The notes beneath the pieces are model-generated. The model searched no databases and was not told where the DNA came from. It worked only from the letters and a program-made list of their open reading frames with translations. DNA of 64,000 nt from a virus: the IMG/VR virus record IMGVR_UViG_3300045988_034366; one strand, given 5' to 3'. A program made the position numbers and the translations under genes. Position 1 is the first letter of the stretch. The number at the start of each line of letters is the position of its first letter. Of this stretch, positions 15,211 through 54,915 are shown one piece after another.

Positions 15211-15240
15211 ATCTTATCTTAATTTAGAGTTTAATTTTTA

Positions 15241-16590: not shown

Positions 16591-16591
16591 A

Positions 16592-22200: not shown

Positions 22201-23873
22201 TATAATAATGGGGTAATACCTATAGTATTTGTAAAATCTCCTATATATAGCACCTCTGACCAATTACCAGTCTTATATTGTAATTGTAACCCAAACCTAT
22301 AGGTCTCACCTTTCTTAAAATAAGCAGCTTCATTTGAGGCTTTCAAACTACTATTAAATACATAATCTTTATCTAAGGAAGATACATCTTCTACATTATA
22401 ATTATAATATACAAAATCAACTGAAAGTTGTCTTACCTTTTCTTTTAATTCCTTACTTATATTATAAGTATCTGTATTTATATTCCCTAAAAATAATGTA
22501 TTATCTTTATGTGTAAGGGTAGAAGCTTTAAATAAATCAGGTTGATATAATAATTCAATAGGGTCAACTATAGTTCCTATATTACCTGTATCTATAAAAG
22601 AATATGTATTTCTTGATTCTGAACTATCATCTGTAGTAGATAATTTTATAATAAATGAATCTACATTAAGACCTTCTTTACTCTTAGCTCTTACAAAGAT
22701 TGAAAATTTACCTCCACCATTATGTATATAATTTATAACATTTTCTGTATTAGTAGTTACATTCTGTTTGAATAGAATTTTACCTTCTACTAGAGTATAA
22801 GGGATAATAATATCTTTGTACACATAAAGTACAGGAGATTCTTCATTCAGACCTTGACTTTCAAAATAACATTTCTGTAAATCAAAAGTATTACTATTAA
22901 TTACTTTTTCAACATCAGGTTTATACTCAATATCATTAATAGTAGTTTTAAAATTAGTAATACTTGAAGTATATTTATCTATAGTATCATTTCTTCTTAT
23001 AGTATAAATTTTAGTATTTAAAGTAGTGCCATGCTTATTTTTTACATTAACACAGATATTGAGTACTTCTTTATTCCTAAGCTGTAAAGATGTATTTAAG
23101 GGAATATCTTTAGCCAATGTACCATTATTAATGATATTCACTGTAGTTAATGAATTATCATAATAATAGAAAACTCTCAATGACTTAGTATCAATTAAGT
23201 CTTCATTAACATAATATAGTTTTAAAGAATTAAGAGTTATGTCAATAGCAGTTCCACTATCATTTGCTGCCAACAAGTCCCCATTATTTCCATCTGGGTA
23301 TTTATTAATTATTTCTTCATTATAACTATAATCAAGAGACTCAATGCCATAAGAGAACTTTCTTTCAGGGGTTGTTGGTTCTCCATCTTTTACACCTGTA
23401 ATATAATAGGAGTTCTCAATCTTAACTAAAGGGTCTTCTTTAGTAGATACATAGAGTTCCCAATTCTCATTTAATATTCTTTTTTCACTGCCATCTATTT
23501 CAACAGGTGCAGATGGCCATATCATTAATATAGAAAATTCTTTATCAATAGTAAAAGTATAGCCATTTGATTCATCTCTAAGATAAACATTCTTAAAGTT
23601 TTTAGTATATCTTTCCTCTATAGGAGTCTTAGGAATATTAGTACTGTTAGGTACAGCTCTTGGATTTATACATACTGCATACCTACCATCATAAAGACAT
23701 AAGTCATAGTACCATAAATTTGAGCTAAGGTACATTGAATTAAAGTAATCTATTATAGAACCAGAAGATACAAAGTCTCCTTCTTCACCATACCTTATGC
23801 CATATCCACTAATATGTGTAAAGTCAGGGTCATCTAATTTTACATTATTAAGTAACTTATTTAAATATTTCAT
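19239..23873 (-). CDS. Large tail-complex structural protein (1544 aa)
   Basis: ATG ORF with an ATGA overlap to the upstream gene. N/Y/T-rich, beta-type composition, located in the tail block. Confidence 0.55.
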   Translation of the reverse strand: MKYLNKLLNNVKLDDPDFTHISGYGIRYGEEGDFVSSGSIIDYFNSMYLSSNLWYYDLCLYDGRYAVCINPRAVPNSTNIPKTPIEERYTKNFKNVYLRDESNGYTFTIDKEFSILMIWPSAPVEIDGSEKRILNENWELYVSTKEDPLVKIENSYYITGVKDGEPTTPERKFSYGIESLDYSYNEEIINKYPDGNNGDLLAANDSGTAIDITLNSLKLYYVNEDLIDTKSLRVFYYYDNSLTTVNIINNGTLAKDIPLNTSLQLRNKEVLNICVNVKNKHGTTLNTKIYTIRRNDTIDKYTSSITNFKTTINDIEYKPDVEKVINSNTFDLQKCYFESQGLNEESPVLYVYKDIIIPYTLVEGKILFKQNVTTNTENVINYIHNGGGKFSIFVRAKSKEGLNVDSFIIKLSTTDDSSESRNTYSFIDTGNIGTIVDPIELLYQPDLFKASTLTHKDNTLFLGNINTDTYNISKELKEKVRQLSVDFVYYNYNVEDVSSLDKDYVFNSSLKASNEAAYFKKGETYRFGLQLQYKTGNWSEVLYIGDFTNTIGITPLLYNDGIESKPIARITITKELIEEFKANGFIGARPLCVYPDVNTRKVLCQGILCSTLYNVRDRHNNAPYVQSDWFARPQYTFIPDNTRNNIDMQGLAHAGNYLESNMFTVEDGKYKLKTLPSAMQFNGEIQCVDNIDNYEINSGDIDNINKVYGIDKRILTIHSPELDLNYSDELTHIALDSNIKLRIVGYAPLKHTLSDITIQTENLFNPYAGAFNTFIRRRASSTGKNVSSRSLINWQFWVDSEYDTGMQYQGENVGVGNSFAIYPWHRKGSLNNTPKTVDAANRKSILSKKIMSNYRICLPSRFLNTYKECAIQDFKIFNSDQVSSIINLKAFGRNIQYKGNCDKILTFKATKKEDVTNIKDECLLSAASRHGHTSNLRQDSDINILQRITYQLSWAGVIYEDTAKNYYPLQNNKNVPGFNQDPVPIQYKSTGHGVMVLDYKNNKYNLLPKLKNNSNIINESGSMTFNKEVLFNKDDLNINNYDFNQDYININDYSIAEYDGNAGDFGYYLIGEIYRDKIINAFGGDDETVLSNNVWQVCGNNVPFKENITSIYATQGDTFYCRYDHLKTYSNTREDINQVIDIPSFMVETRINIDGRYDRNRGNENNLSVNPNNFNLFNKVYSQSNNFYTAKYLEEDKSSTTKFPNQIVWSLTKTLGEETDSWTNIHLNNALDLDGDLGKVTSLKRINNEIYSFQEKGISKINFNSRVQLNTSDGLPIELANSGKVDGKLYITNKFGCQNKWSMAETPSGVYFVDDLNQGILSFNGQSIADLTYTKNMYSWINSNVSLASWNPEDYGAIRTFYDRNNSDIYFTTSTDSLAFSEKLGAFSSFYDYGKVEWMFNVEGNTYQVKGNEVWKLQGGGDYGTFFGENKGYSLAVIANPEFHLDKIFDTIEFRTNGIEHFTNWKADSYPFNLLVTTNEYQTATSTTSSLKKKFRTWRWQVGRSNSFGKFKRDRIRNPWAKIAMSGNSNKEVRLYDIAVTYYT

Positions 23874-24706
23874 ATCTTTATATCTTTAATTAGAGTAACA
23901 GTAGGAGTTGCATCTAAAGAAGTTCTAAATATTCTATACACTTTTACATAATCAAAAGTAGTATTTAAGTTTATTATTTCTATATTAAAAGATACCCCAC
24001 TTTTCTGTGACCCATCTGGATTAAGACCTCTACCATTATCAGAAGTATAATATAAAGGAGACATACAACACATTCCTGTGGATTGACCATATTTATTATA
24101 ATATGATAAAGCATATTGAACAACACCTGCCTCAAAGTTTCCATTCACTTCAAATACAGGAGTAACATAAAATTCAGTATTTACATTTGATATTATAGGA
24201 TTAAAATCAAATTGAAAATTGTCATCTTCCTTTATATACTTTCTTATTTCTTCTTCTGATTGTCCTTCAAGATTTAATAATAACACCCTAGGTGAATTTA
24301 TGCCATCTACCCAATATACCTTTTGTATATCTGAAGTTTCATAAATTCCTATACTTTCTATAGGATGTAAAGTATTGAAACCTAGATTACCCCTATATAA
24401 TAAGATTTCCTGTTGTAAATTACCATTAATACTTTTTATGTTATATATTGCATCAGGTTTAGTATCACCTAAATTAGTTACAAATAGAATGGCATTATTA
24501 TTTATTACTTGAATACCAATAATAGTACCTTGTATAGTAAGTATCTTAGAATTACTTTTTTCATTAACAAGACATAAGGAAGTATCTTTACCCGTAGTAA
24601 CTATCCTCATGTTCCTAATACTATATGCAGCATCAGCAGGAAATTGGCTAACTGCCAAATCCTGCTGCATACTTTTAGGTACTATAGATATTTGTTTCTT
24701 TTGCAT
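23870..24706 (-). CDS. Tail-associated structural protein (278 aa)
   Basis: ATG ORF, tightly packed in the tail block. Confidence 0.55.
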   Translation of the reverse strand: MQKKQISIVPKSMQQDLAVSQFPADAAYSIRNMRIVTTGKDTSLCLVNEKSNSKILTIQGTIIGIQVINNNAILFVTNLGDTKPDAIYNIKSINGNLQQEILLYRGNLGFNTLHPIESIGIYETSDIQKVYWVDGINSPRVLLLNLEGQSEEEIRKYIKEDDNFQFDFNPIISNVNTEFYVTPVFEVNGNFEAGVVQYALSYYNKYGQSTGMCCMSPLYYTSDNGRGLNPDGSQKSGVSFNIEIINLNTTFDYVKVYRIFRTSLDATPTVTLIKDIKI

Positions 24707-24707: not shown

Positions 24708-25415
24708 TCATTGTATTCTTATAAATTCTCTTTTCCCTAATGATTTCATGCCTTTACTATGTTCATTGGTTCTTTGCAATAACTGAGTCCACATATTACT
24801 GATGGATTCCATCTGGTCTATAGTAGGCATATTTAAATCTCTTTGTGCCTGACCAACATACCACGCATATTCTTGCTGAGTATTTTGTAATACTGCATTA
24901 TTAATTTTACCCTGGTCAAAGAGAATTGTAAATACTTTTTTCTTTATATAAAGTTCTAATGCCTGTATAAAGCTACTATTTTCAGGTATCATAGGATAAC
25001 CTTCATCGTCTACTTTAATAGCATGATAGGCAACTTCTATAACCCCTTCCTTAAGGGAGGTATAGATAGCATTATTCTGTAACTTATAAGTCAAGTCCCC
25101 AGTCTCTGAGTTCCCATTAGGCTCCTTCTTAGAACTATAATGGAAATTATCTGAAGCATATCTAAATACTTTAGGACAATATTCCCCTTCCTTATAAGTC
25201 CTCACTTGTATCATATCATAGTAGTCACAAGGCAAACACCCCCTGTAGTTCTCTATGTTAACTAGAGCTGTCTTTTCTTCAAACTCATTAGGCACTCCTA
25301 CAATCTGTATGAAGTGTACAGCGTAGTTTACAGCTCTTTCAAAAGACAGGTCTTGTAGGAGAGGGTGGTCTAACAAGTCATCTAGTATTTGTTTAATGCT
25401 AATATATTTAGTCAT
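24708..25415 (-). CDS. Tail-associated structural protein (235 aa)
   Basis: ATG ORF, tightly packed in the tail block. Confidence 0.55.
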   Translation of the reverse strand: MTKYISIKQILDDLLDHPLLQDLSFERAVNYAVHFIQIVGVPNEFEEKTALVNIENYRGCLPCDYYDMIQVRTYKEGEYCPKVFRYASDNFHYSSKKEPNGNSETGDLTYKLQNNAIYTSLKEGVIEVAYHAIKVDDEGYPMIPENSSFIQALELYIKKKVFTILFDQGKINNAVLQNTQQEYAWYVGQAQRDLNMPTIDQMESISNMWTQLLQRTNEHSKGMKSLGKREFIRIQ

Positions 25416-26113: not shown

Positions 26114-26641
26114 CTAATTTCTATTTAATAGGAAAGCATCTACTTTGCCTTCCTTGATATTTCTTTTAAGAGTTTTCTTCAGCTCCCTATTGGCATTGAA
26201 CTGGTAGAAAGATTTGTTTGTATAGTCTGCCTTAGCCTTGTTATAATGAACCTTGAAAATCTCTTTTTCCTCCATTTTAATGAGTGTTCTACTCTTATAG
26301 GCTTCCTCATCTTCACACCATAATTTAAGTGTCCTATCCCAATCTATTGGGAGATTGCTATGCAGTTTCCCATCCTTGAAATTAACATAAGTACTTATCT
26401 TTCTGAGTTCTATAGTGCCCATCCTATGAGGAAGTTTTATATCCCCTCCTGTAGATAGGTTGAGAGCAAGTTCATTGTTTATCTTTCTAATTATACTATA
26501 AAACTCATGCTCAGTAAGCCTTTGACCTATATCAATCCATTGCCTCTTTCTAAGCCACTTGTAAGCATCATATACTCCCAATGACTTGTTCACTTTATGA
26601 ACTCTAGGCTCATTTAATTTAAGAAGTTCTTCCCTAGTCAT
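26114..26641 (-). CDS. HU/IHF-like DNA-binding protein (175 aa)
   Basis: EFYSIIRKINNELALNLSTGGDIKLPHRMGTIELRK resembles the HU/IHF helix-helix-G..v.L.G.G.f.v core. IHF-like genes are typical of crAss-like structural blocks. Confidence 0.4.
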   Translation of the reverse strand: MTREELLKLNEPRVHKVNKSLGVYDAYKWLRKRQWIDIGQRLTEHEFYSIIRKINNELALNLSTGGDIKLPHRMGTIELRKISTYVNFKDGKLHSNLPIDWDRTLKLWCEDEEAYKSRTLIKMEEKEIFKVHYNKAKADYTNKSFYQFNANRELKKTLKRNIKEGKVDAFLLNRN

Positions 26642-27363
26642 TAAGATTCAATCTGCTTCTGTAAGTTTGATTTAGCATTCCTTGCTATGAAGTTAGCTAG
26701 ATTAGCCAAGTCATCCATAGCATTGTTCTCAGAATCTTCAGGCTTATATATAGCTCCTGAAAGTTCCTTGGTCACTAGCTCTGTTAAAGGAGGAATAAGT
26801 GCATCTTCAAGAGGAAACTCTTTGTCAAGAATATCACAGCTCTCTGATTGCTCACACTCTAATTCTGAGGCTTCTTCTGCATCACTAAATACTCCAGTAA
26901 ACTTTATTTCCTCTAAGTAATAGAGCTGTGGGTTTGAAGACTTCAGGTATAAATATCCATCAGGTCCTTTAGCAGCATAAATTATATTCTGAAGCCATTT
27001 ATTGTGTCCTATATATCTCAGCCTATCCCTAGATACATAAGTTATCTCTCCATTGAAGTAGTCATCTGAATGCACTCTAGATTGTCCTATATTCATAGTT
27101 TCAGGTATCTTCTTAGTACTCCTCATATAGGTACCTTCACAAGGTATTCCCTCTACTCCTTCATGCTCTTCTAGGTCTAAGCACAGAGTCTGATAGTTGG
27201 ATAATGGAACTTCCTTCCTTACATCAGAGTATCTTTGCTTTAAGAGAAAAGCCCTATATTTACTTAGCAAGAATATAATATGGTCTTCAGTAAAAGATGA
27301 ATCATCACTCATAAGTTTTAGTTCATCTAATATTAAGTACACTAGTTGTCTGTATGTTCTCAT
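26641..27363 (-). CDS. Structural-block protein, unknown function (240 aa)
   Basis: ATG ORF with its own -7 box upstream; 1-nt overlap with the next gene. Confidence 0.55.
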   Translation of the reverse strand: MRTYRQLVYLILDELKLMSDDSSFTEDHIIFLLSKYRAFLLKQRYSDVRKEVPLSNYQTLCLDLEEHEGVEGIPCEGTYMRSTKKIPETMNIGQSRVHSDDYFNGEITYVSRDRLRYIGHNKWLQNIIYAAKGPDGYLYLKSSNPQLYYLEEIKFTGVFSDAEEASELECEQSESCDILDKEFPLEDALIPPLTELVTKELSGAIYKPEDSENNAMDDLANLANFIARNAKSNLQKQIES

Positions 27364-27373: not shown

Positions 27374-27430
27374 ATTAAAAAAGTTCTTGTGGCAAAGATA
27401 CTAAGAATTTATCAATGCCACAAGAACTTT
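27374..27430 (-). terminator. Intrinsic terminator after the glycosyltransferase gene
   Basis: Perfect 14-bp stem (27380-27393 / 27417-27430) followed on the minus strand by a T6 run. Confidence 0.7.
27393..27400 (-). promoter_or_regulatory. Bacteroidota-type -7 box (TATCTTTGCC) for gene 26641-27363, lying in the terminator loop
   Basis: TAnnTTTG match about 30 nt upstream of the ATG at 27363. Confidence 0.5.
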
Positions 27431-27462
27431 ATTGTTTTAGTTATTGTTCTTACAAAGTTTTA

Positions 27463-29763
27463 TTAACAGGATACCTTAGCATTCAATTCAAGGAAGTAGC
27501 TCATGTCATGCTTTGCAACCTTAGTGAAAAAATACTTCTTAAAGCTAGCTAACTTATCATAGTTCTGCATCAACATAGCTTTAGCAGCATCAAATGCCGC
27601 ATCCCCAATTCTCTTTCTAAGATGTTCCTCATATACAGGAATCTTATCATCAGAAGAGAATAAATGTATGAGGTATAACTGATTATGGTCTACCTGTGTA
27701 GTAGTTACTACATAATTACCTCTTTCTCTGTAAAGGTGTCCTACTCCCCAATTCTTGATAAGAAGAACTTCACCTCCTGCAAGCCATGTCTTGATAGACA
27801 TCAGAGGTTCATCTAATCCATACTTTATAAGACCAGTAAGTCCTCCAATCTTGAACCACCATCCTATACTTGAAGCATATACTGCTCCTAATACACAAGA
27901 GCAGGGAACTACTTCTGCATCAGGATTTTGGTCTAGTAGCTTATCTGTCCACTTAGCTGTGTATTCCCATCCATCCTCTGTCATATTAACAAATGAGGCA
28001 TAAGTACCAAACCTTTTTCTTCCTATATGCCCATCTTCATTACTATAGATTCCATATTCATCTTTACCAAAGTAGACAGTGTTAGAAGTTATTAGTCTAT
28101 TAGGATTTTCATCAAGAAGACTTACTAGTCTCTCATCCCAATTAAACTCATAGAATCTCATATGGGCATCAAGCAGCACAAAGTAAGGAGTAGTGCAATG
28201 GAATACACCAAAGTTCCTAGAACCTGCTACACCTAGGTTAGTATCATTCCTATAGTAGTCACATCCAAAGATTTCAGCTACTTTCTTGTAATTATACCCA
28301 TCATTGCTATTATCATCAATGAGCATAATCTTCACATCCTTGGCTGTAGCTCTTACAGAAGTAACAGTTTTCTCTACTTCATATCCTTCATTTTGGAAAG
28401 GAATAATTACAGTTAATTTACTATTGCTTCCCTTAATATGGTCCCCATTACCTACATTAGCATGGCAATAAGCATTCTGAATCATGGTAGCACCATCAAA
28501 GGGGCTTGGATTCATTGTAACCTGTTTATCATGCTGTCTATAATAGTTTACTACCTTAGGAACATTGAATATCTTCAACCCATGAGTAACAGCAGTTATC
28601 CATAGCTTTTGGTCTTCAGCACCATCAAATATCTTTTCATACCAGAAAGGAAGTTTTAATAGTGAAGATTTTCTCATCATAACTGTAGGATGCCCTATGC
28701 AATTATGATGGTCCAAATATTCTCTTATAACCTCACCTGGCCCTGGTTGGAAGTATTCTTTAACTGCTTTCCCATTACCCCATTCAAATCCAGCACCCAT
28801 AATATCTACATCAGGATGCCCCTGCATCCAATTAAACTGATATTCAAGTCTATCAGGATACATCATATCATCAGCATCCATCCTAGCTATGTAGATTCCA
28901 ATAGCTCTTCTAATACCTAGGTTAAGTGCTTCTGATATACCATCATGCCTCTTCTTTATATAGACAATCCTATCATCTGTATAGGATTTGATTATATTCT
29001 CTGTATTATCTGTTGAACCATCATCAACAATGATAAATTCAAAGTCAGTGAAAGTTTGTGCAAGTACACTATCTATACACTCCTTAAGATATGTTTCACC
29101 ATTATACACAGGCATAACAACTGAAATCATCTTATAGTGAGAAGTCATGCCTAGATGAATAGCATGAGTGTCTTCAGTAGGATGAAATTCATCTATAGGA
29201 TAGAAATACATCTTAGGGTAAATAGTAAGCCCATCAAACTTCTGTAACAGATTCACATCAGGGCTAAAGTCATATATCTCCTTTACACCTGCTGTTGTAG
29301 CATAGATACTATTGTATATATTAAGAGAACCATCCCTCTTAATATAGTGCTTATTCTCCATCTTATCTAAGAGAGCCTTAATAGTTGGATTACCTTTCTC
29401 TGCTCCTACTAAGCCCCATCCTATTTCACCAGGGTTTATCATTCCTACAAACATCTTGTTGTCTAGGAATGGGTCTAGGGATTTAGTAACCATTTGGTCT
29501 GCATCTAGGTATATGCCACCATAGTTATAAAGTACATATAGCCTCATATAGTCTACTATGTAACCATAAGAGCCACATCCACATTCATAACATTCTTTTA
29601 CCCAAGGAACAGAATTAACATCAAAAGTTTCTTCATTCCATAATCTTATCTCATAATCTGGCAGAATCCTCTTCCATGATTCAATACTTCTCTGAACTGC
29701 TTTGGGTAATTCCTTATTTTTGTCTTTGCTGAACCAGCAATAATGTATTATTTTGGGAATCAT
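27463..29763 (-). CDS. Three-domain glycosyltransferase (DXD sugar-binding GT32-like + GT2 + GT2/GT27-like)
   Basis: Domain 1 (aa 1-205): IPKIIHYCWFS...GGIYLDADQ. Domain 2 (aa 212-415): ISVVMPVYNGETYL...FIIVDDGSTDNT...ARMDADD. Domain 3 (aa 449-700): LTVIIPFQNEG...LIDDNSNDG...VLLDAHMRF. Confidence 0.8.
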   Translation of the reverse strand: MIPKIIHYCWFSKDKNKELPKAVQRSIESWKRILPDYEIRLWNEETFDVNSVPWVKECYECGCGSYGYIVDYMRLYVLYNYGGIYLDADQMVTKSLDPFLDNKMFVGMINPGEIGWGLVGAEKGNPTIKALLDKMENKHYIKRDGSLNIYNSIYATTAGVKEIYDFSPDVNLLQKFDGLTIYPKMYFYPIDEFHPTEDTHAIHLGMTSHYKMISVVMPVYNGETYLKECIDSVLAQTFTDFEFIIVDDGSTDNTENIIKSYTDDRIVYIKKRHDGISEALNLGIRRAIGIYIARMDADDMMYPDRLEYQFNWMQGHPDVDIMGAGFEWGNGKAVKEYFQPGPGEVIREYLDHHNCIGHPTVMMRKSSLLKLPFWYEKIFDGAEDQKLWITAVTHGLKIFNVPKVVNYYRQHDKQVTMNPSPFDGATMIQNAYCHANVGNGDHIKGSNSKLTVIIPFQNEGYEVEKTVTSVRATAKDVKIMLIDDNSNDGYNYKKVAEIFGCDYYRNDTNLGVAGSRNFGVFHCTTPYFVLLDAHMRFYEFNWDERLVSLLDENPNRLITSNTVYFGKDEYGIYSNEDGHIGRKRFGTYASFVNMTEDGWEYTAKWTDKLLDQNPDAEVVPCSCVLGAVYASSIGWWFKIGGLTGLIKYGLDEPLMSIKTWLAGGEVLLIKNWGVGHLYRERGNYVVTTTQVDHNQLYLIHLFSSDDKIPVYEEHLRKRIGDAAFDAAKAMLMQNYDKLASFKKYFFTKVAKHDMSYFLELNAKVSC

Positions 29764-29783
29764 ACTGATAAGATTTTTAATAA

Positions 29784-29813
29784 AGTAAGTACTGGATAAT
29801 ACCAGTACTTACT
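29784..29813 (-). terminator. Hairpin between the Thr-linker gene run and the glycosyltransferase gene (weak terminator/attenuator)
   Basis: Perfect 12-bp stem AGTAAGTACTGG / CCAGTACTTACT with a 6-nt loop; only a weak U-tract on the minus strand. Confidence 0.4.
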
Positions 29814-29826
29814 ATTTTGTTATGTA

Positions 29827-30498
29827 TTAGGCATTCACTAAAGGAGCATTTTTCATATCAATTACTACACTTGACTGAGTAGTACCTGCTAGACTGACTT
29901 CTTTAGGGTTAAGGCCATCAGATGTAACCTTAATTACAGTACCACCTGTATTAGATTGTAACTTAAGTACTGCTGGTGCTGCTGTTGTAGTTGTAGTACT
30001 AGTAGTTGTTGTAGTTGTAGTACTAGTAGTTGTAGCACTTGCTAAAACTGCCTCTACTATAATATTGCTACCTGGAGTAATGGCATCTGTAGTATAAGGT
30101 AATTTAACAATCTGACCATTGACTTTCAGCTGTGGAATCTTCCAGTCAGGATTAACAACTGTAGCAGAAGTAAATCCTATAGTGATAGTAGGAGTAACAT
30201 CTGTTGGGAACTCTAAGGTCTTTACAACACCATTAGAACCAACTGGGACTGTACCAAAGGTACCTGTAACTGTGTAATTTGTAATACTATTACCCTTGAA
30301 AGTAACAGTAACAGGCTTCTGTGAGTACCTAATATACAACTCTTTAGTTTGTCCAGATTTCAGAGTGAAATCATGGACCTTACTTGAGGTAAGTAAGGTT
30401 TTATAGTTTTTGTCTGCATATATACCCTTAAACACTTTACCTGAAGGGTCAGCAGAGGTAACTTGAACTTTTACTTGTCTTTGTCTAATTTGTGCCAT
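29827..30498 (-). CDS. Beta-rich virion surface protein with poly-Thr/Ser linker (223 aa)
   Basis: ATG ORF. Contains SATTTSTTTTTTTSTTTTTAAP between two beta-rich modules. Confidence 0.6.
   Translation of the reverse strand: MAQIRQRQVKVQVTSADPSGKVFKGIYADKNYKTLLTSSKVHDFTLKSGQTKELYIRYSQKPVTVTFKGNSITNYTVTGTFGTVPVGSNGVVKTLEFPTDVTPTITIGFTSATVVNPDWKIPQLKVNGQIVKLPYTTDAITPGSNIIVEAVLASATTTSTTTTTTTSTTTTTAAPAVLKLQSNTGGTVIKVTSDGLNPKEVSLAGTTQSSVVIDMKNAPLVNA
29984..30031 (-). repeat. Tandem 24-nt x2 repeat encoding the poly-Thr linker
   Basis: GTTGTAGTTGTAGTACTAGTAGTT occurs twice back to back on the plus strand. Confidence 0.85.
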
Positions 30499-30502
30499 AT
30501 TT

Positions 30503-31327
30503 TTAGGGAATTGAAAATTTTGTACTAGTTGAAGTAGTGGTTGGGGTAGAATTAGAACCCTTAAATTTAATAGTTATATATGACATACCATCAGAAGGAG
30601 TATCAAATTTATATTCTTGCTCATTTGATAGTAGCTCACCTGTCTTGCTGTCATAGAATCCAATAACCTGCTCATAAGTAGAAAGAGGAAGGCTAAGAGT
30701 AATTTTGCTGCCTATTGTGCCTCCCATGCCTGAATAAGAATAGTGAACTGTATCTCCCTTTAAGACAAAGGAGGTATTATCTCCATTAGAGATATTTACA
30801 TTAACTGTTCTTGAATCTTCAGGCAGGTTCACATCCAGGTCTCTGGTATCTAGTTGCAGATATGCTAACTGACCTGGAGGCTCAGTGGATATAGTACCAG
30901 TAGTTGATGTAGTAGAACTACTACCTATTTCAACAACTTCTCCATCAGATAGAGTAACTTCTACCTTAACATTATCTGCATTAGCATGAAGAATAACATA
31001 TGTAGAAGTGTCTACAATCTTTGTTAGTGTAGAATAGAAATCATCTTTTGTTTTATCGCCACTATTAGACTTATAATTTTGATAAGTACTATCAGCTTTC
31101 TCAACTAGGTTAGAATCTGATACTCCATCCTTAAACCAGTACTCAGTAATAGAATCACCACTTTTGACACCAATAGTCAAACCTACACATCTTTTAGATG
31201 TGGTAAGTGCAGTCAAAGCTGCACTTACACTATTATATGGTCCATATCTCTTATCCATTTGAGGATAAGGATTAAATCTACTATCACTCCCAGTGAAGTT
31301 CACAATATCACTTATAGTTACTGCCAT
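30503..31327 (-). CDS. Beta-rich virion surface protein with Thr/Ser linkers (274 aa)
   Basis: ATG ORF. Has an internal SSSTTSTTGTISTEPP and ends in NSTPTTTSTSTKFSIP. Confidence 0.6.
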   Translation of the reverse strand: MAVTISDIVNFTGSDSRFNPYPQMDKRYGPYNSVSAALTALTTSKRCVGLTIGVKSGDSITEYWFKDGVSDSNLVEKADSTYQNYKSNSGDKTKDDFYSTLTKIVDTSTYVILHANADNVKVEVTLSDGEVVEIGSSSTTSTTGTISTEPPGQLAYLQLDTRDLDVNLPEDSRTVNVNISNGDNTSFVLKGDTVHYSYSGMGGTIGSKITLSLPLSTYEQVIGFYDSKTGELLSNEQEYKFDTPSDGMSYITIKFKGSNSTPTTTSTSTKFSIP

Positions 31328-31329
31328 CT

Positions 31330-32727
31330 TTATTTATTTTTAGCTTTAACATTTATAAGTTCAGGAGCACCACCATAGTAGTTATAGACGAAATACACAT
31401 CATAGTTTATGCCATTATAGGCCCCACCCTGATTAGCATTTACTCCTCCCCTTGTGTGCTTGGAATAGAAAATGCCATTATTTGTATCATCAGGGATATT
31501 TTCCTTAGTATTATCATAACATACAGTAGTTATTCCACCTGATGTGAAGGCTGCATATTGTAACTCTACCTTATCTACAGGAACTATTAGGTATGTGTAA
31601 TATCCATTCTGTGGGATAGTAAACTTATTTACCTCAGTACCTGTTATGGTTTTTGACTTTGTGCCTTCTCTCTCCATTAGGGTATTTATAGGAATATCTA
31701 CAAAATCAAAAGGAGACATATAATCTTTTACTACACCATAATAGACACTATTACCTACAACAGGAGGTTGTGTGGAGGTACTTGTAGTGGTTGTAGTACC
31801 TACAGAAATAAATACTGGGTCTATAACTACTGATGTATTATTATAATAAGGAAGCTCAGTAGCAGTATCATTTATTATAACTTTGTCAACTTTCCATCTG
31901 TTATCAGCGCATTCTATTTTATTGATAACATAACCTAACTCAGCAATTGTCACAGAAACATCCTTGTCAGTTACTGAGACTGTATGACTTGCATTATAAG
32001 TAGCTGTATAAGGAATGCTGCCATGCTTAAATAGGAGAATAACAGGTGCTGGAGTTGATGTCGTTGTACTTGATGTCGTTGTACTTGATGTCGTTGTACT
32101 TGATGTCGTTGTACTTGTAGTTGTAGTACTTACTTCTTCATACCTAAGCTCTATGGTGTTAGTACCTGTTGAAGGTATAGTATATTGTAAAATATTACTA
32201 TAGCCAATTAAAGACCCTGCTACATAGAAGCCGCTGAAAGCATATCCAACTACAGCCTGGGCCATTATAGTAACTTTGCTACCTACTTCTACCTTTACTG
32301 GAGTTCCTATCCCAACTAGTTCATTGTCTACATAGGCAGTACTAGCTACTGTAGAACTAAGTATCAGATAAGTAGGCTTAATAGGAGGTTGAGTAGTTGT
32401 ACTTGTAGTAGTTGTTGTGGTTGGCACAATTACAGGCGGAGGAGTAGAACTCCCTCCATCACAACATACACATTCACAGCAAGGTCTATTAGTTGGTAAA
32501 GATACTTCACAAGTGGAACCAAAGAATTGGTATAATAAATCTCGCATCAGCTTAATATCTTCGTTTGTTATATAATATCTTAGCTCAGTGTGAGTGATTT
32601 CATAAATGAAGTCCATGACTAGCATCTTGAATACTACATCATAGCTTTTATAGCCTGTGTGAGCTAAGGTCTTGAAGTATCTTATCAAATTATCATACAT
32701 TAACTCATCCATTGCATCCACATCCAT
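31330..32727 (-). CDS. Multidomain virion surface protein with three poly-Thr linkers and a Cys-rich N-domain (465 aa)
   Basis: CCECVCCDGGSSTPPPVIVPTTTTTTSTTTQPP, then VSTTTTSTTTSSTTTSSTTTSSTTTSTP, then GTTTTTSTSTQPP, each separating beta-rich modules. Confidence 0.6.
   Translation of the reverse strand: MDVDAMDELMYDNLIRYFKTLAHTGYKSYDVVFKMLVMDFIYEITHTELRYYITNEDIKLMRDLLYQFFGSTCEVSLPTNRPCCECVCCDGGSSTPPPVIVPTTTTTTSTTTQPPIKPTYLILSSTVASTAYVDNELVGIGTPVKVEVGSKVTIMAQAVVGYAFSGFYVAGSLIGYSNILQYTIPSTGTNTIELRYEEVSTTTTSTTTSSTTTSSTTTSSTTTSTPAPVILLFKHGSIPYTATYNASHTVSVTDKDVSVTIAELGYVINKIECADNRWKVDKVIINDTATELPYYNNTSVVIDPVFISVGTTTTTSTSTQPPVVGNSVYYGVVKDYMSPFDFVDIPINTLMEREGTKSKTITGTEVNKFTIPQNGYYTYLIVPVDKVELQYAAFTSGGITTVCYDNTKENIPDDTNNGIFYSKHTRGGVNANQGGAYNGINYDVYFVYNYYGGAPELINVKAKNK
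32056..32130 (-). repeat. Tandem 15-nt repeat (4 perfect + 1 degenerate unit) encoding (TTTSS)n
   Basis: TGATGTCGTTGTACT x4 on the plus strand, followed by TGTAGTTGTAGTACT. Confidence 0.9.
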
Positions 32728-33259
32728 TACTAGGTTTAGTACTAATGGAGTTAGTAAACTTCTTCCAATATGTTATGGCTAATGGGGAGTCCCTAGTTTT
32801 AAGACAGATTTGGAATGCTTTATATCTTAGGATAAAGTCAATAAAGGCTCTTGGAATATCACACTTGTGATAGGTCTCACTAAGGTATTTCAAAGCCTTT
32901 CTATAGATGGGGTAAGCGTCTACTCCAACTCCTAAAGTAATAGGAGAGTCTAAACCACAAGGCACATCACAAGAAGGAACTCCTTTTGTAATCACATACA
33001 CAAAGAACATATTACCCTCCATAGTAGGTACTAATAAATCTGTGGCCTTGATAGTCATTTGCACCCTCTTCTGGTTGCCAGAAATAGTGTAAGAGTACAC
33101 TGGATATTTACTTACTCCATCTTTGTTAAAGGTATCTTGTGTATCTACTACTATCTTATCTATATAGACATTCTTAAAGTATGGCATATCCAATACAGAA
33201 CAATCTATATAGATTCCCTTATTACAAGGGATAACAAATAATTTATTAAATTCTACCAT
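32705..33259 (-). CDS. Structural-block protein, unknown function (184 aa)
   Basis: ATG ORF; 23-nt overlap with the downstream gene. Confidence 0.55.
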   Translation of the reverse strand: MVEFNKLFVIPCNKGIYIDCSVLDMPYFKNVYIDKIVVDTQDTFNKDGVSKYPVYSYTISGNQKRVQMTIKATDLLVPTMEGNMFFVYVITKGVPSCDVPCGLDSPITLGVGVDAYPIYRKALKYLSETYHKCDIPRAFIDFILRYKAFQICLKTRDSPLAITYWKKFTNSISTKPSNGCGCNG

Positions 33260-33320: not shown

Positions 33321-34301
33321 TTAGAGAGTTGCAATACTGAGACCTGTAGCAGTGTTGAAGGCTGCAATTACCTTATTAAGTTCTGCCTTATTAGCACATA
33401 CAATTGTAATAGTCTTTTCAGACTTTTGTACTGATTCATTGCTGCCAACATAAGCATAATGAATATCAAATACACAGTATGCCTTAGCTGGGTCTACAAG
33501 ATAAGTAGTAGGTATGTTGTGAGGCCATCCTACTTGTCTGTACATATCTCCTCTCTCACCCATACAGAAGTATTCAAGGTCTGCAATAGTCTTACCATTG
33601 CCAATAGAACCACTTGTACTTTCTGTTAGAGTAGCCCAATATCTTTCATCACCATTTACAGTAACAGGTACTGATTGTACTGTGAAGTAAACAGGGGTTT
33701 GAGCCATAACTCCAAGTCTCCAAGGTTGCTCAACTTCAGTAATAACTACTCCAGTGTAAGTACCTGTGAGGTCTGCTACCTTAGTTGTAGGAGTTACCTC
33801 TGTAGTTGCAGATGCAGTCTTAATCTCAATCTTGATAAGAGGAACTACTTCTCTGCTGAAGTTCTTAGCCAGAGAGACTGCAAGAACCTTATAGAACTCA
33901 CTTGCATCCATGCCAGCATAAGCATGTACCATACCATACTTGAAGTACTGGTCTTCATCTGACATACCTACATATTGCTTGAATGCAATTCTTAGGATGT
34001 AATCCTGTCCTGCAACAGGAGCACCACCATTGACATTTGAATCAAGAGCTATAGTTACTGACTTAAGGTCATGTGCCATAGCAGTTGCATCAGTAGCCTT
34101 TGCATAAAGGATATTCTTTGTGTCAATTAGGTCACTTCTCATTAAGTTATCAGCACCCTTGTACTCAAAATACAGATGGCTCTTGGCAGTATCATTCTTT
34201 ACTGCAATAGAACCAGCAGCATCTGAAGCAAGCACATGAGGAGTCTTGAATGCTGTTGCTACATAAAGTTGTCTTACTTGATTTACACTAAATGTCGCCA
34301 T
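33321..34301 (-). CDS. Capsid-associated structural protein (auxiliary/decoration candidate, 326 aa)
   Basis: ATG ORF, fourth gene after the putative MCP. The assignment rests on position only. Confidence 0.4.
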   Translation of the reverse strand: MATFSVNQVRQLYVATAFKTPHVLASDAAGSIAVKNDTAKSHLYFEYKGADNLMRSDLIDTKNILYAKATDATAMAHDLKSVTIALDSNVNGGAPVAGQDYILRIAFKQYVGMSDEDQYFKYGMVHAYAGMDASEFYKVLAVSLAKNFSREVVPLIKIEIKTASATTEVTPTTKVADLTGTYTGVVITEVEQPWRLGVMAQTPVYFTVQSVPVTVNGDERYWATLTESTSGSIGNGKTIADLEYFCMGERGDMYRQVGWPHNIPTTYLVDPAKAYCVFDIHYAYVGSNESVQKSEKTITIVCANKAELNKVIAAFNTATGLSIATL

Positions 34302-36856: not shown

Positions 36857-38368
36857 TTAGCCCTGTAGAACAGCAGGGATTAGTGACATAGTTCTTGTTG
36901 GGTCAAGAACACAGATACCAAGAGTAGCCATTCTGTGGATTACAGCAGAATCCTCATCAAATGACATATAAGGATTACCCTTTTGACCTGTGAATGGATT
37001 TCTCAATCCCCACTGATAACCTCTGTATTCATTATCACCCTTAATCTTACACTTAAAGATATTAGGTTGGTCCATAGTACCAATGTACATAATATCATAT
37101 CTGTAAGAGAAGGCAACACCTCCATTTGGATGGAGAATCTTGTTTCTTACGGGGTCATCATAGAATGGGTCTACATCAATCTTAACCCTTACTCCATTAG
37201 GAGCTTTGTATTCTACAAATTGGAAACCAGCACTTAATGAGTTCTGATGAAGCTGTGATTGAGTCTTCTGTACAACTCCAATAGAGTTGTTATCAAGAAC
37301 AAACTGAGTCCAACCTGATACAGTCTTAAGTACTTCCTTGTGGAATTGGATAGCACCTCTTTCACCAGTCTTAATGAGGAAGTATCTATCACCAAAGTCC
37401 AACTTAGCAGCACTTAGCTCATATAGAGCATCTTCAAGAAGCTTCAAACTAAATGTGTTGTAATACATAGTATTAGCAACTTCCATTTGCTCAAATAAGC
37501 CAGCACCTGTCTTAATAGCATTACCTGACTTACCAAAGTTCATGTACTCACCATTCTGATTTTTGTTGCTTCTACCAAAAGCAAGGGCATTGTTCTTGTA
37601 TTCAGAGAACTGCTGTTCTACTTCCCAGTCTACATTGTGCATCCACATTGTAGCAACTGACTTAGTGTATCTACCCTCTGTTTCCTTAGTGATAGGAATA
37701 CCAACAGCCAGCTTCTTATTCAGCATAGAACCTTCAACCTTGTGTTGGATTCTGACTACAGACCACTCATTTCTCATAGAAACAGGGCTTATAAATCTTA
37801 CATCACCAACCTTTCTTGAAAGCTCCTTCTCAACAAATGCAGCCTCAACTGAGAATCTCTCACCTGCAAGTAATCTTTCAGCAGGAACACCTGCTGTGTT
37901 ACCTCCAGCAAGCTCTACCTTGTAAACTGCATTAGTACCCTCCATTCTTGGGTCTCCGAGGATTCTGAATTGATAGACTTCATTCAGACTACCTACAATG
38001 TACTCACCATCAGCAAACCAGTCCTCAGGAAATACTAAGTAGAAAGGTGCAGTACCTACACCCACCATTCCTGAATCATTAGTTATAGGTGTACCATTTT
38101 CATCTCTTGCCTCTAAAAGAGGAATGTTTCTTCTTGAAGAACCAATAACATCCCAGTAGTACTCATTGTCATCCTCAAATTCTCTTGTTGGGAATTGGTT
38201 TAGGAATGTGTCAAGGGTCTTTCCTCTGTAGTAAGCTAACAGTTGCACCATTAGGTTTGTAGCCTTTTGTGGAGCTAACTGAAAGATAGAACCAAGGTGG
38301 TTTTCCTTAGTAAGTCCCTTCCAGTGCTGGAAGCCTACCATTTGAAACTTACCTAATTTTCCAGCCAT
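36857..38368 (-). CDS. Major capsid protein candidate (503 aa)
   Basis: ATG ORF immediately downstream of the scaffold-like gene and followed by a terminator. Size fits crAss-like HK97-fold MCPs. No alignment was possible. Confidence 0.6.
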   Translation of the reverse strand: MAGKLGKFQMVGFQHWKGLTKENHLGSIFQLAPQKATNLMVQLLAYYRGKTLDTFLNQFPTREFEDDNEYYWDVIGSSRRNIPLLEARDENGTPITNDSGMVGVGTAPFYLVFPEDWFADGEYIVGSLNEVYQFRILGDPRMEGTNAVYKVELAGGNTAGVPAERLLAGERFSVEAAFVEKELSRKVGDVRFISPVSMRNEWSVVRIQHKVEGSMLNKKLAVGIPITKETEGRYTKSVATMWMHNVDWEVEQQFSEYKNNALAFGRSNKNQNGEYMNFGKSGNAIKTGAGLFEQMEVANTMYYNTFSLKLLEDALYELSAAKLDFGDRYFLIKTGERGAIQFHKEVLKTVSGWTQFVLDNNSIGVVQKTQSQLHQNSLSAGFQFVEYKAPNGVRVKIDVDPFYDDPVRNKILHPNGGVAFSYRYDIMYIGTMDQPNIFKCKIKGDNEYRGYQWGLRNPFTGQKGNPYMSFDEDSAVIHRMATLGICVLDPTRTMSLIPAVLQG

Positions 38369-42376: not shown

Positions 42377-42792
42377 TATTTTTCATCTGCAAAAGGTGGA
42401 GTATTACCATCTACGAATGGAGGTATTGTGCTCATAGTATGTGAATTATAATCATATAAAGTAATTAGGGCAATACTTGGTATGTCAGATATGCGTGTAG
42501 ATAAATCAAATAAAAAGTATTTATTTGACTCATCCTCTGTAGTTTCTATAGGATAGAGGGAATACTGGCCATCATAATCACCATCAAACCCTATTTCTGC
42601 AACTATAGTATCTTTAGAATTAGATGTCTTAGGTCTAATTACAGCTAAATATTTTTCAGTAGATGTGGGAGGCTCTATATTTGTGGTTTCACCGAAATCA
42701 CATGTATAATGAATCTCACTAGGAGAGAGGTTATTTAAATGGTGTTGTACCAGGCTGTGGGGTAGATGTAGTACTAGTAGTAGTAGCATCAT
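42376..42792 (-). CDS. Beta-rich module ORF (138 aa), possibly the C-terminal part of the upstream Thr-linker protein
   Basis: Its only start codons (ATGATG) lie inside the upstream gene's poly-Thr coding run, 62 nt before that gene's stop, in the +1 frame. Confidence 0.4.
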   Translation of the reverse strand: MMLLLLVLHLPHSLVQHHLNNLSPSEIHYTCDFGETTNIEPPTSTEKYLAVIRPKTSNSKDTIVAEIGFDGDYDGQYSLYPIETTEDESNKYFLFDLSTRISDIPSIALITLYDYNSHTMSTIPPFVDGNTPPFADEK

Positions 42793-43330
42793 ATTTATAG
42801 AGCTGTATATTCAGGTCAATAGTAGATAATGCAGCTGATGCACTATATTCAATAGTGCAGTCATTTCCATTATCTATGATGATATTTTGATTAATAGTAT
42901 CATCTCCCATTTTACCCAGTATTGCCACCCTAATGGCATCTACAGTATCATGTAAGTTTACTGATTGTACCCTTAATGAAAAAAATCCTCCTCTACTGTT
43001 AGGTAAAATTTCAAAGTATGTAGTTCCATTAGGCTCTATACTTTTGCTAACAGGTTCTGCTACTGAGGTAGTAGCAACAATATTTACCTTATCAGCTAGG
43101 GTACTACTTATTCTTACTCCAAATGGTGTTGTCGGTACTGTAGGTTCTGGGGTTGAAGAAGTAGTAGTTGTAGGAGGTACTACAGGCTTAGGAGTAGTAG
43201 TTGGTGATAAGGCTTGGGAATATATCTCTTCCCAGCCATTAGGCCCAAACCACTTTAGCTTCCCATTATAAAACCAAAGATGTTCCTTATTAGGTTCAAC
43301 ATTGCTTTCCACAATAGTTACATTTCTCAT
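42731..43330 (-). CDS. Virion surface protein with conserved N-terminal anchor motif and two Thr/Pro linkers (199 aa)
   Basis: N-terminus NVEPNKEHLWFYNGKLKWFGPNGWEE. Linkers: TTTPKPVVPPTTTTSSTPEPTVPTTP and a terminal ATTTSTTSTPQPGTTPFK. Confidence 0.55.
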   Translation of the reverse strand: MRNVTIVESNVEPNKEHLWFYNGKLKWFGPNGWEEIYSQALSPTTTPKPVVPPTTTTSSTPEPTVPTTPFGVRISSTLADKVNIVATTSVAEPVSKSIEPNGTTYFEILPNSRGGFFSLRVQSVNLHDTVDAIRVAILGKMGDDTINQNIIIDNGNDCTIEYSASAALSTIDLNIQLYKYDATTTSTTSTPQPGTTPFK

Positions 43331-52972: not shown

Positions 52973-52986
52973 ATTACTTGAATTAG

Positions 52987-53059
52987 TTGCAGGGGAGAGA
53001 CTCGAACTCTCAACCTCAAGGTTATGAGCCTTGCTAGCTACCATTGCTATCACCCTACG
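52987..53059 (-). tRNA. tRNA with CAU anticodon (fMet / Met / Ile2 not resolvable)
   Basis: Reverse complement reads CGTAGGG...CAAGG-CTCATAA-CCTTG...GAGAG-TTCGAGT-CTCTC-CCCTGCA-A. It has a C1:A72 mismatch and an A11:U24-like pair as in bacterial initiators. There is one extra nt before the D stem. Confidence 0.7.
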
Positions 53060-53070
53060 ATGTATATTAG

Positions 53071-53143
53071 AGCCTCTTGTAGGAATTGAACCCACATCTT
53101 CTGAGTACAAAACAGAAATAATAAACCTTTATACTAAAGAGGC
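53071..53143 (-). tRNA. tRNA-Thr (UGU)
   Basis: Acceptor GCCTCTT/AAGAGGC, anticodon loop TTTGTAC, T-arm GTGGG-TTCAATT-CCTAC, weak AT-rich D stem. Confidence 0.8.
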
Positions 53144-53147
53144 ATTG

Positions 53148-53233
53148 TAGCTTCAGTGGGACTTGAACCCACACTTCCATTACTGGAAAACAGAGTTTAA
53201 GTCTGTCGGGTCTACCTATTCCCCCATGAAGCC
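53148..53233 (-). tRNA. tRNA-Leu (UAA)
   Basis: Acceptor GGCTTCA/TGAAGCT, loop CTTAAAC, long variable arm TTTCCAGTAATGGAAGT, T-arm GTGGG-TTCAAGT-CCCAC, A73. Confidence 0.8.
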
Positions 53234-53239
53234 TTCGTT

Positions 53240-53686
53240 TTAATAAGGTCTTACATCACACAGACCAAACAAGTATCTATACTTGTTGATATTCTGTATA
53301 AATGTCTCACATTCTGAAGTGATGCCTTTATATATAATCTCTTGAGGAATCTTGTCATAAAAAGATAATGTACCTACTTTAACTTCTTCAATGAAGTCTA
53401 TAGCATTTAGTGTATTACTTGCAGTACCTTTAATAACATTAGGTTGCATCTGCCCAAGTATTCCCATATAACCCTCTGCAAGCCCATCCTGATAATCTGA
53501 TAGTATAACAAGAAACTCATCAAGATACACATGAATATTCTTCTTAGGTGCTGCCCAATGGAGGTTTTTACACTTAGTTTTCCACCCCTCAAGTTGATTG
53601 AGGAAACTTATGAAGAATTGACTTCCTGTAGGAGAATTATTCTCTCTTTCCTCTTCCATTGGTGTAAACAAGCTATCTTCAAACAT
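53240..53686 (-). CDS. Dps/ferritin-like protein (148 aa from ATG 53686)
   Basis: KCKNLHWAAPKKNIHVYLDEFLVILSDYQDGLAEG parallels the Dps ferroxidase region K.AHWN..G..F..VHE.LD.......D..AER (His, His, Asp, Glu present). The listed start at 53713 is TTG. Confidence 0.55.
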   Translation of the reverse strand: MFEDSLFTPMEEERENNSPTGSQFFISFLNQLEGWKTKCKNLHWAAPKKNIHVYLDEFLVILSDYQDGLAEGYMGILGQMQPNVIKGTASNTLNAIDFIEEVKVGTLSFYDKIPQEIIYKGITSECETFIQNINKYRYLFGLCDVRPY

Positions 53687-54907: not shown

Positions 54908-54915
54908 GACTTAAG

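Follow-up and report, generated by a model that had tools for sequence, protein, structure and literature searches.

The stretch of DNA considered here, IMG/VR virus record IMGVR_UViG_3300045988_034366 (64,000 nucleotides in full, hereafter the window), stems from a crAss001-like phage of the Steigviridae type, as judged from the Pfam recognition of its structural genes. On its minus strand it encodes a three-module glycosyltransferase (GT) of 766 amino acids (aa; 27463..29763), which lies next to a series of proteins with Thr/Ser runs. We propose that this enzyme is probably a soluble, cytoplasmic protein O-glycosyltransferase of the phage that modifies the Thr/Ser linkers of tail-hub appendage proteins. 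The third module of the GT is a true sequence and fold homologue of the polypeptide GalNAc-transferases (ppGalNAc-Ts), its pairing with Thr-run proteins recurs in other phages, and the family of this module is tied a second, non-viral time to Thr-rich polypeptides. This comparative evidence favours a polypeptide as the acceptor.

The original prediction had read the open reading frame (ORF) as a fusion of three nucleotide-sugar transferase modules, and assignment of Pfam domains agrees with a GT32-like, a GT2 and a GT27-like module in this order. The first module (D1, aa 1-205; 29149..29763, minus strand) is a GT32-like retaining enzyme of the GT-A type with a DXD motif (YLDADQ). Scanned alone, it matches Gly_transf_sug (PF04488) at aa 20-103 (E 3e-17, 63.5 bits versus a cut-off of 23) and also Caps_synth (4e-10) and TcdA_TcdB (23.8 bits); a scan of the full protein places Gly_transf_sug and Caps_synth at aa 4-106. 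These matches and the motif bear out its proposed membership of the DXD sugar-binding Och1/capsule-synthesis type, and in the PDB it shows weak similarity to SetA, TcdA and Och1 (E 0.0025-0.02). The second module (D2, aa 212-425; 28489..29130, minus strand) is a generic inverting GT2, as had been assumed: it reaches 194.3 bits against Glycos_transf_2 (PF00535, gathering cut-off 23.3; best stretch aa 214-366), carries the motifs IVDDGSTD and RMDADD and resembles chondroitin synthase (2e-28), GalT1 and TarP-like enzymes in the PDB. The third module (D3, aa 449-766; 27463..28419, minus strand) consists of a GT27-like catalytic domain and a helical C-terminal extension; scanned alone it matches Glycos_transf_2, too (aa ~451-577, E 2e-20). 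Neither a transmembrane (TM) segment nor a signal peptide was detected in the GT (maximum Kyte-Doolittle hydropathy over 19 residues 1.36), which is predicted to be soluble. The enzyme is highly conserved, with 414 sequences falling in a single cluster at 99% identity. A tblastn search with the full GT in 50,697 GenBank phage records gave no full-length relative but generic GT2 matches only, and a single-sequence scan of IMG/VR returned close relatives only, the distant ones being found via alignments. NCBIfam holds no specific model for D3, for the Thr-linker proteins or for the precursors of ribosomally made peptides with post-translational modifications (RiPPs) discussed below, and its matches to the GT remained far under the cut-offs.

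In the PDB, D3 alone finds ppGalNAc-Ts first (6s22, 5e-9), in line with the GT27-like character ascribed to it from its motifs, and the alignment with 6s22 passes through the DxH motif, the WGGE equivalent and VGH..R. A family profile built from 19 diverse D3 members was searched against the same database, and the top 15 matches were all ppGalNAc-Ts (E 1.8e-28 to 2e-17, profile positions 10-293). The homology spans both halves of the domain, comprising the GT1 motif and the Gal/GalNAc-T motif region, whereas generic GT2s align to the N-terminal half of the D3 profile only. An AlphaFold2 (AF2) model of D3 computed with 49 homologues (pLDDT 94.4, pTM 0.93) was submitted to Foldseek as a separate module, and again all top 50 PDB matches were ppGalNAc-Ts (TMq 0.64-0.78). 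Asp92, His94 and His236 (D3 numbering), corresponding to the metal triad of the GT27 type, are invariant in the 19 and in the 49 homologues; the respective motifs LLDAHMRF and VGHLYR align to DxH and VGH of the ppGalNAc-Ts. The modules thus do not all belong to enzymes of polysaccharide or lipopolysaccharide (LPS) synthesis, as D3 is a ppGalNAc-T homologue and its closest cellular relatives are RiPP-cluster enzymes. No Ricin_B_lectin match was found for D3 with Pfam, and the model terminates in five helices that extend ~80 aa past the catalytic core. Since D3 is without a membrane anchor and without the lectin domain of the ricin type, we call it GT27-like and not a member of GT27. An exhaustive search yielded 284 representative clusters of the D3 family at E <= 1e-30 and 2,504 at E <= 1e-3, in which the domain occurs stand-alone or in the architectures GT2-D3, GT2-D3-X and GT32-GT2-D3. 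The ppGalNAc-Ts (CAZy family GT27) initiate mucin-type O-glycosylation in animals and Toxoplasma, and the related polypeptide GlcNAc-transferases of GT60 include cytoplasmic enzymes; a double-D3 protein of another phage (L267, see below) has a weak match to Pfam 'GlcNAc' (PF11397).

Directly upstream of the GT gene, three consecutive ORFs (29827-32727), all on the minus strand, bear the Thr/Ser/Pro runs between beta-rich modules that the original prediction had pointed out. The first is an extended THB protein (THB-ext, 465 aa; 31330..32727) in which the N-terminal THB domain is followed by three beta-rich modules, with Thr/Ser linkers between the modules at 32392-32421, 32053-32130 and 31771-31797. 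Its THB domain is recognised by Pfam crAss_THB (PF25711; aa 4-79, 5.9e-16, 58.9 bits versus a cut-off of 27), is 54-56% identical to the THB of two other phages (L011 and L094), and lies immediately downstream of tail hub protein A (THA). The second ORF (274 aa; 30503..31327) encodes a conserved N-terminal domain, an SSSTTSTT linker (30899-30922), a second module and the C-terminal run TTTSTST (30521-30541); its N-terminal domain is common to o164 of L094 and o141 of L167. The third ORF (223 aa; 29827..30498), directly upstream of the GT and its constant partner in the clade of the window phage, has a 155-aa module, a Thr/Ser run of 17 residues (29983-30033) and a 51-aa module. Two further, Thr/Pro-rich linkers (43151-43171 and 42761-42784) are present as predicted in a 199-aa ORF with a fibre-like N-terminus (42731..43330, minus strand), 13 kb from the GT. 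We regard THB-ext and the 274-aa and 223-aa proteins as candidate glycoproteins, of which THB-ext would be anchored in the tail hub, and the 199-aa protein as a possible further substrate. The fibre-like N-terminus (…LWLNNGLIKYYGPNGWE…) of the latter is shared by ORF 43296-44621 (minus strand, 441 aa), in which Pfam recognises a calcineurin-like metallophosphoesterase domain (Metallophos, 3.3e-14); this ORF represents a putative case of an enzyme domain on a virion appendage.

When the residues of each protein were shuffled within that protein 500 times, runs of at least 6 residues were expected at a mean of 0.19 (maximum 3) and runs of at least 8 at a mean of 0.002; the observed numbers are 9 and 6, respectively. 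Eight of the nine runs fall in four proteins, namely those of the three ORFs upstream of the GT and of ORF 42731-43330. The linkers are encoded by mixed codons, and the longest is in part an imperfect DNA tandem repeat, (AGT ACA ACG ACA TCA)x4. Among relatives with GT and THA 97-99% identical, linker length varies from T9 to T25, and THB length from 371 to 769 aa with a varying number of modules. The homologues of THB-ext (P0254-P0373) form more than 120 separate clusters at 90% identity, mostly singletons, with 87-95% identity. The candidate substrates evolve fast, and the mixed codons together with the length variation beside a near-constant GT and THA let the linkers behave like selected protein features.

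The GT was suspected to go together with Thr-linker genes, and we counted this pairing with one representative per lineage in 14 independent phage lineages that bear D3. A Thr/Ser run of at least 8 residues (8-56) within 10 kb is present in six of them, often abutting the GT, and a run of at least 10 residues in five. Runs of at least 8 were found at 0/69 viral loci with GT2 only and at 0/69 crAss loci without a GT, the latter stemming from few clades and not representing 69 independent observations; Fisher tests against the controls gave p values of 8e-6 (runs of at least 8) and 7e-5 (at least 10). With 6/14 lineages against none of the GT2-only loci, the GT indeed co-distributes with Thr-linker genes, though not universally. 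In a phage of ~150 kb (L170), a three-module GT is followed by fibre-like genes, then by a fibre-like LRR_5 protein of 443 aa that contains T9 and T26, and then by another GT2. In a 204-kb phage (L264, 9758-15729) the gene of an FN3-like protein (428 aa) that contains T22PT8 and T48 stops 50 bp before the D3 gene; the D3 protein has a Cys-rich extension at its N-terminus, and four more GT-like genes come next. A 640-aa protein with ~55 Thr abuts the D3 gene inside the tail module of a 44-kb phage (L265), where a second Thr-run protein follows a GT2 beside lambda-like tail genes. L267 and L268 feature a 439-aa protein in which seven linkers are of the form PPP-T(n), then a 747-aa double-D3 GT (8657-10900 in L267) and then genes for a methyltransferase and for GT25-like, GT32-like and GT2 enzymes, and L280 has a three-module GT (D3 58% identical) with Thr-run proteins nearby. 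The pairing thus recurs where the D3 domains are only 25-58% identical and where the Thr-run proteins are unrelated (FN3/ConA-like, LRR_5, tail-module proteins, RiPP precursors). A further three-module GT, 53% identical to that of the window, is found on a 379-kb jumbo-phage-like contig (L004, 10001-12241); no Thr runs occur within 10 kb, and its neighbours are small ORFs of no assigned family, a CCA-adding/PolyA_pol-HD enzyme and LRR_5 proteins.

For the bacterial side we scanned one genome per prokaryotic species for D3 and obtained 79 loci (L171-L249), nearly all of them in Bacteroidales. D2 accompanies D3 in 63/79 loci, a radical SAM (rSAM)/SPASM maturase is present in 59/79, a LanC-like C-terminal domain on the GT in 56/79 and an ABC exporter with C39 peptidase in 35/79. 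The enzyme of B. fragilis (P0109) is 40% identical to the phage D2+D3 over 502 aa, and in its locus (L001 9161-18812) the GT is adjoined by a GT11 gene, an rSAM gene and a 102-aa ORF with a KLKGG leader and a CDCDCTTNDC...CPTPTSAP core. Judging from such similarity, the D2-D3 core of the phage protein appears to share ancestry with the RiPP-cluster glycosyltransferases of Bacteroidales. Across the bacterial loci, an [ED]GxLxGGF leader marks 60 distinct precursors, of which 20 have a Thr run of at least 3 and seven a run of at least 6 residues (up to T10, TTPTTPTTPT and T6...T4...T6). In all 20 run-bearing precursors the Thr run is located C-terminal to the Cys-repeat core, and many other precursors have P/T/S-rich segments at the same side of the core. 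The clusters show the D3 family in a setting where it would act on ribosomal polypeptides in the cytoplasm. Their components are a GT2-GT27like-LanClike fusion, an rSAM/SPASM maturase, the precursor, a TonB-type outer-membrane protein and the C39 ABC exporter; the plan of the precursor is an [ED]GxLxGGF leader, a CxN-repeat core, a tail rich in Pro, Thr and Ser (PTS-like) and a hydrophobic C-terminus. A survey from 2023 recorded 'rSAM + LanC (+GlyS)' clusters in Bacteroidales without characterising them (PMC10352776).

In the window, the cassette occupies the space between THA (32705..33259, minus strand; Pfam crAss_THA 6.5e-51) at the upstream edge and Ring protein 2 (Ring2; 26641..27363, minus strand; Pfam CrAss_Ring_2 4.2e-64) at the downstream edge. 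We anchored 79 IMG/VR loci on THA, fetched ~20 kb for each and measured the distance from THA to Ring2. In ~65 crAss001-like loci this slot spans 374-1322 bp and holds no GT, and no Thr runs occur anywhere within the ~20 kb fetched. In the clade of the window phage (THA at least 90% identical) it spans 5.0-6.2 kb and accommodates, besides an extended THB and the three-module GT, one or two more ORFs and 4-7 runs. In crAss001 and bajarodcaudo virus a short THB is followed directly by Ring2; the length of THB is ~90-115 aa in these two, and ~88-120 aa when L011 is included. The slot of an outgroup (L094, THA 62% identical) has 8.5 kb (10548-18991) without a GT and without Thr linkers, and encodes a 405-aa extended THB with tandem Ig-like modules joined without Thr linkers, a 164-aa ORF, which is a homologue of the 274-aa ORF's N-terminal domain, and two giant proteins of 1030 and 1198 aa that bear a GH16-type motif (NNEIDMEL). 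This comparison across clades indicates that the slot between THB and Ring2 forms a hotspot of genes for tail appendages (or depolymerases). Thr linkers appear in this sample only alongside a GT, while a GT is also found without linkers, and among crAss001-like genomes Thr runs are confined to the clade with the three-module GT. A more distant crAss-like phage (L167, GT 62% identical) shows the same arrangement with shorter runs.

We assume that the GT would be produced in the cytoplasm of the infected cell, where D3 would recognise a polypeptide and attach the first sugar, by analogy probably an N-acetylhexosamine (HexNAc), to Thr or Ser of a linker. The inverting D2 and the retaining, GT32-like D1 may then extend or cap this sugar, so that short glycans would be built before or during virion assembly. 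Substrates would be the extended THB and the 274-aa and 223-aa proteins and probably the 199-aa fibre-like protein, and the modified proteins would join the tail hub via the THB domain. The GT and its putative substrates would form one accessory cassette inserted in the THB-to-Ring2 slot. The hairpin that precedes the GT gene may attenuate transcription and thereby provide the enzyme in catalytic rather than stoichiometric amounts. As a benefit we presume that the linkers would become stiff, mucin-like and resistant to proteases and would hold the beta-rich modules out from the tail. By analogy with the streptococcal O-glycans treated below, protection and stiffening of the linkers in the gut would be the most conservative function, and protection from proteolysis seems at least as plausible as the mucus adherence or immune masking suggested originally; effects on mucus adherence or antibody recognition are possible as secondary guesses by analogy. 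Beyond sequence, fold and gene-neighbourhood statistics we infer that the linkers are the acceptors, in which order the modules act, which sugars they transfer, that the 274-aa, 223-aa and 199-aa proteins are located in the virion, and what the benefit would be.

Several points weigh against this proposal. Runs of at least 8 within 10 kb are lacking in 8/14 D3-bearing lineages (L011, L255, L266, L168 and L004; L169, L262 and L263 are weak), including the L011/L254 clade (THA 55% identical), where the same slot contains a D2+D3 GT but Thr runs are missing; L282, found in a later metagenome scan outside the 14, likewise has the GT without nearby Thr runs. Within the crAss001-like phages the combination of GT and Thr linkers is essentially one clade and one evolutionary event, and the GT-less controls are phylogenetically narrow. 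Taken alone, D1 and D2 resemble polysaccharide GTs. The acceptor in the bacterial RiPPs is not necessarily Thr; Cys or Asn within the CxN repeats is conceivable as well. Only THB-ext carries a recognisable virion-anchoring domain, and its AF2 model reached a pLDDT of 46.9 (shallow alignment of 13 sequences with 91-98% identity) and was left unused for a fold search; this low-confidence model has a helical N-terminal domain and beta-rich modules, with the linkers at very low confidence. Finally, the GT is bracketed by terminator-like hairpins, as found for autonomously expressed morons.

The last point leads to the non-structural role that had been named as the alternative from the outset, in which the GT would be a moron-like enzyme that alters the capsule, LPS or another polysaccharide of the host and the Thr linkers would be unmodified spacers. 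The effect would be a block of superinfection or a changed display of receptors. Caps_synth matches D1, PHROGs labels D2 as 'GtrB-like O-antigen conversion', the best sub-threshold NCBIfam matches of the GT are exopolysaccharide (EPS) and teichuronic GTs, and the hairpins on both sides give the gene the appearance of an independent unit. In gut phages such as the 'Gratiaviridae', GTs in late modules have been read as host-glycan modifiers (PMC8008677), and capsule variation in Bacteroides governs the susceptibility to crAss phages (PMC8375218); both reports count for this explanation. Nevertheless we consider it unlikely. The PHROGs matches cover the GT2 core only (aa 212-303), the GT has no membrane segment in contrast to GtrB-type enzymes, and D3 is specifically ppGalNAc-T-like and not a polysaccharide GT. 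None of the 79 bacterial D3 loci was identified as a capsule locus in a screen of RiPP-type markers only, and the recurrent adjacency of D3 and poly-Thr proteins in unrelated phages would be left unexplained. Seroconversion of the GtrB type as the principal explanation was rejected for lack of a membrane segment and because D3 is a different kind of domain.

A polypeptide acceptor other than the linkers, either a host protein in a toxin-like takeover or a small phage or host peptide in the manner of a RiPP, would fit the closest cellular relatives of the enzyme, which modify or accompany small secreted peptides, and the similarity of D1 to the protein glucosyltransferases TcdA and SetA. This similarity is marginal, however (E 0.0025-0.02), and neither a precursor-like ORF nor an rSAM gene or C39 exporter is found near the phage gene, whose product also lacks the LanC-like domain of the RiPP enzymes. 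With Thr-rich proteins adjoining the GT as obvious PTS-like acceptors, we hold another polypeptide to be improbable.

It is about equally doubtful that the Thr/Ser runs are unmodified, flexible or slippage-prone spacers and co-occur with D3 through co-transfer of accessory genes or a shared ecology. The tandem-repeat character of part of the longest linker would agree with slippage, and the D3-bearing phages without nearby Thr runs as well as the single event in the window clade would agree with a chance association. Against this stands the pairing at 25-58% identity of D3 and with unrelated Thr-run proteins, the absence of runs of at least 8 from all 138 control loci, and a highly conserved enzyme beside varying linkers. 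Glycosylation of phage DNA (hypermodified bases) against restriction, a task of many phage GTs (general knowledge; also PMC12619734), is very unlikely and was rejected, since no base-hydroxymethylase or similar enzyme was found with Pfam in the 20 window ORFs scanned, D3 is of the polypeptide type and has the polypeptide-GT fold, its family goes with peptide clusters in bacteria, and the gene resides in a tail module.

Glycosylation of the linkers by the phage's own GT would be of interest for several reasons. The crAss-like phages count among the human gut's most abundant viruses, and their particles persist there amid proteases, mucus and antibodies. If the proposal is true, some gut phages make mucin-like O-glycoproteins with a homologue of the enzyme that initiates mucin glycosylation in animals, and virion glycosylation reaches beyond the mycobacteriophages with a different enzyme family and substrate logic. 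A large GT family of Bacteroidales RiPP clusters would gain a concrete biochemical function, and a D3-type GT beside poly-Thr proteins would provide a genomic signature for glycosylated virions in metagenomes. Work that leaves such modifications out of account would have to be revisited, be it on models of phage adherence to mucus, on how immunogenic therapeutic phages are or on structures. More tentatively, Bacteroidales and their phages may share a so far unrecognised class of cytoplasmic, GT27/GT60-like polypeptide Thr-O-glycosyltransferases, which in bacteria would make mucin-like glyco-tails on secreted, rSAM-crosslinked peptides and which several unrelated phage lineages, abundant crAss-like phages of the human gut among them, might have captured, together with further GTs, for mucin-like glycodomains on appendages of the virion. 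In that case gut phages would bear mucin-type O-glycans of their own making, and these might influence how stable the virions are, how long they stay in mucus and how antibodies recognise them.

The remainder of the window agrees with the predicted location of the GT gene within a block of virion genes: Pfam recognises the crAss auxiliary capsid protein (33321-34301), THA and THB on its upstream side, and on its downstream side Ring2, Ring 1 (24708-25415), the muzzle protein and both cargo proteins (1 and 2). The major capsid protein (36857-38368) has no Thr/Ser run. The closest GenBank relatives are remote, with Bajarodcaudo virus 1 showing 79% identity across 11% of a 12-kb query and crAss001 covering ~2%. 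Members of the window clade, by contrast, occur at 98-99% identity in numerous metagenomes of the human gut. Both hairpins described at the borders of the GT are real according to stem/loop analysis. The one that separates the GT start from the last Thr-linker ORF (29784..29813; 12-bp stem, 6-nt loop) is a possible attenuating terminator; the one past the GT stop (27377..27433; 24-nt arms, 88% complementary), which is followed by TTTTTAAT on the coding strand, is terminator-like. The 3' arm of the latter includes TATCTTTG (27386-27393, minus strand) ~25 nt upstream of the Ring2 start codon, and this octamer agrees with the consensus of the Bacteroides -7 promoter box, TAnnTTTG. A sigma-70 promoter scan returned fewer sites than expected by chance, the sigma-70 model being unsuited to Bacteroides. 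The muzzle is apparently encoded by two ORFs with a 4-nt overlap (within 19239-24706, minus strand), of which 23870-24706 (278 aa) aligns to crAss_MUZ positions 2-270 and 19239-23873 (1544 aa) to positions 429-1222 and MUZ_C; this could be a real split, a frameshift or an intervening element. The window also has 24 tRNA genes in two arrays (52986-56389, minus strand, and 61000-61554, plus strand), among them tRNA-Thr(TGT) at 53070-53143; ACA and ACT are the chief codons of the Thr linkers.

Comparison with known systems shows what is shared and what differs. The GT-A catalytic domain, the DxH motif with a distal His as metal ligand, and a region resembling the Gal/GalNAc-T motif are common to D3 and the ppGalNAc-Ts of GT27, and the putative acceptors are likewise Pro/Thr/Ser-rich tracts. 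D3 departs from the ppGalNAc-Ts in lacking their ricin-type lectin domain and type II membrane anchor, in its cytoplasmic phage or bacterial context, in being fused to two further GT modules and in an identity of only ~20%. With the Bacteroidales rSAM + LanC-like clusters the phage enzyme shares the enzyme type of its D2-D3 core, and both adjoin polypeptides with PTS-like segments. The C-terminal LanC-like domain, the rSAM/SPASM maturase, the Cys-repeat precursor and the C39 exporter of these clusters are absent in or near the phage protein, which instead has an extra N-terminal GT32-like module and is placed among tail genes. SunS-family S/O-glycosyltransferases of glycocins are likewise of the GT2 type and act on ribosomal peptides in the cytoplasm; membership of this family was rejected, as TIGR04195 scores 26.5 bits versus a cut-off of 350 and covers the generic GT2 N-terminus of D2 only. 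GtrB and capsule-modifying phage GTs have a phage-borne GT2 in common with the window enzyme, with PHROG matches restricted to the generic GT2 core. GtrB-type proteins combine a GT2 with C-terminal TM helices, whereas the window GT is without such helices and D3 is not of the GtrB type; the window phage moreover has no recognisable lysogeny context as in seroconversion. Ser/Thr-rich disordered regions of streptococcal proteins are O-glycosylated, and the glycans protect from proteolysis (PMC12041528). That process is extracytoplasmic and uses lipid-linked donors and other GTs on cellular proteins, while the phage case would be cytoplasmic and viral.

Virion glycosylation in mycobacteriophages was reportedly described by Freeman et al. 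in 2023, according to two papers that cite this work (PMC12363180, PMC12619734). As the original prediction had stated, it is known from these phages: GTs of Che8 (gp108-110), Corndog and Myrna modify the structural proteins of their own phage, and the glycans shield virions from antibodies. For crAss-like phages, no paper found in our literature search deals with GT27-like enzymes, poly-Thr linkers or glycosylation of the virion, in line with the earlier impression. The principle of phage-encoded GTs that act on their own particle in the host cytoplasm would be common to both systems. The enzymes are unrelated, Che8 gp110 being GT25-like and gp108 a GT2 with a methyltransferase; an hhalign comparison of the D3 family with Che8 gp110 gave a probability of 0.2%, and no mycobacteriophage is among the 104 tblastn matches of the GT in GenBank phage records. 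The targets in mycobacteriophages are the C-termini of capsid and tail-tube subunits, compared with internal poly-Thr linkers of accessory tail-hub appendages as the presumed targets here, and the hosts are Actinobacteria compared with Bacteroidales. Glycosylation of the own particle is thus the element established for mycobacteriophages, whereas the enzyme family, the substrate logic of mucin-like internal linkers, the group of phages and hosts, and the evolutionary link to RiPP glycosyltransferases differ.

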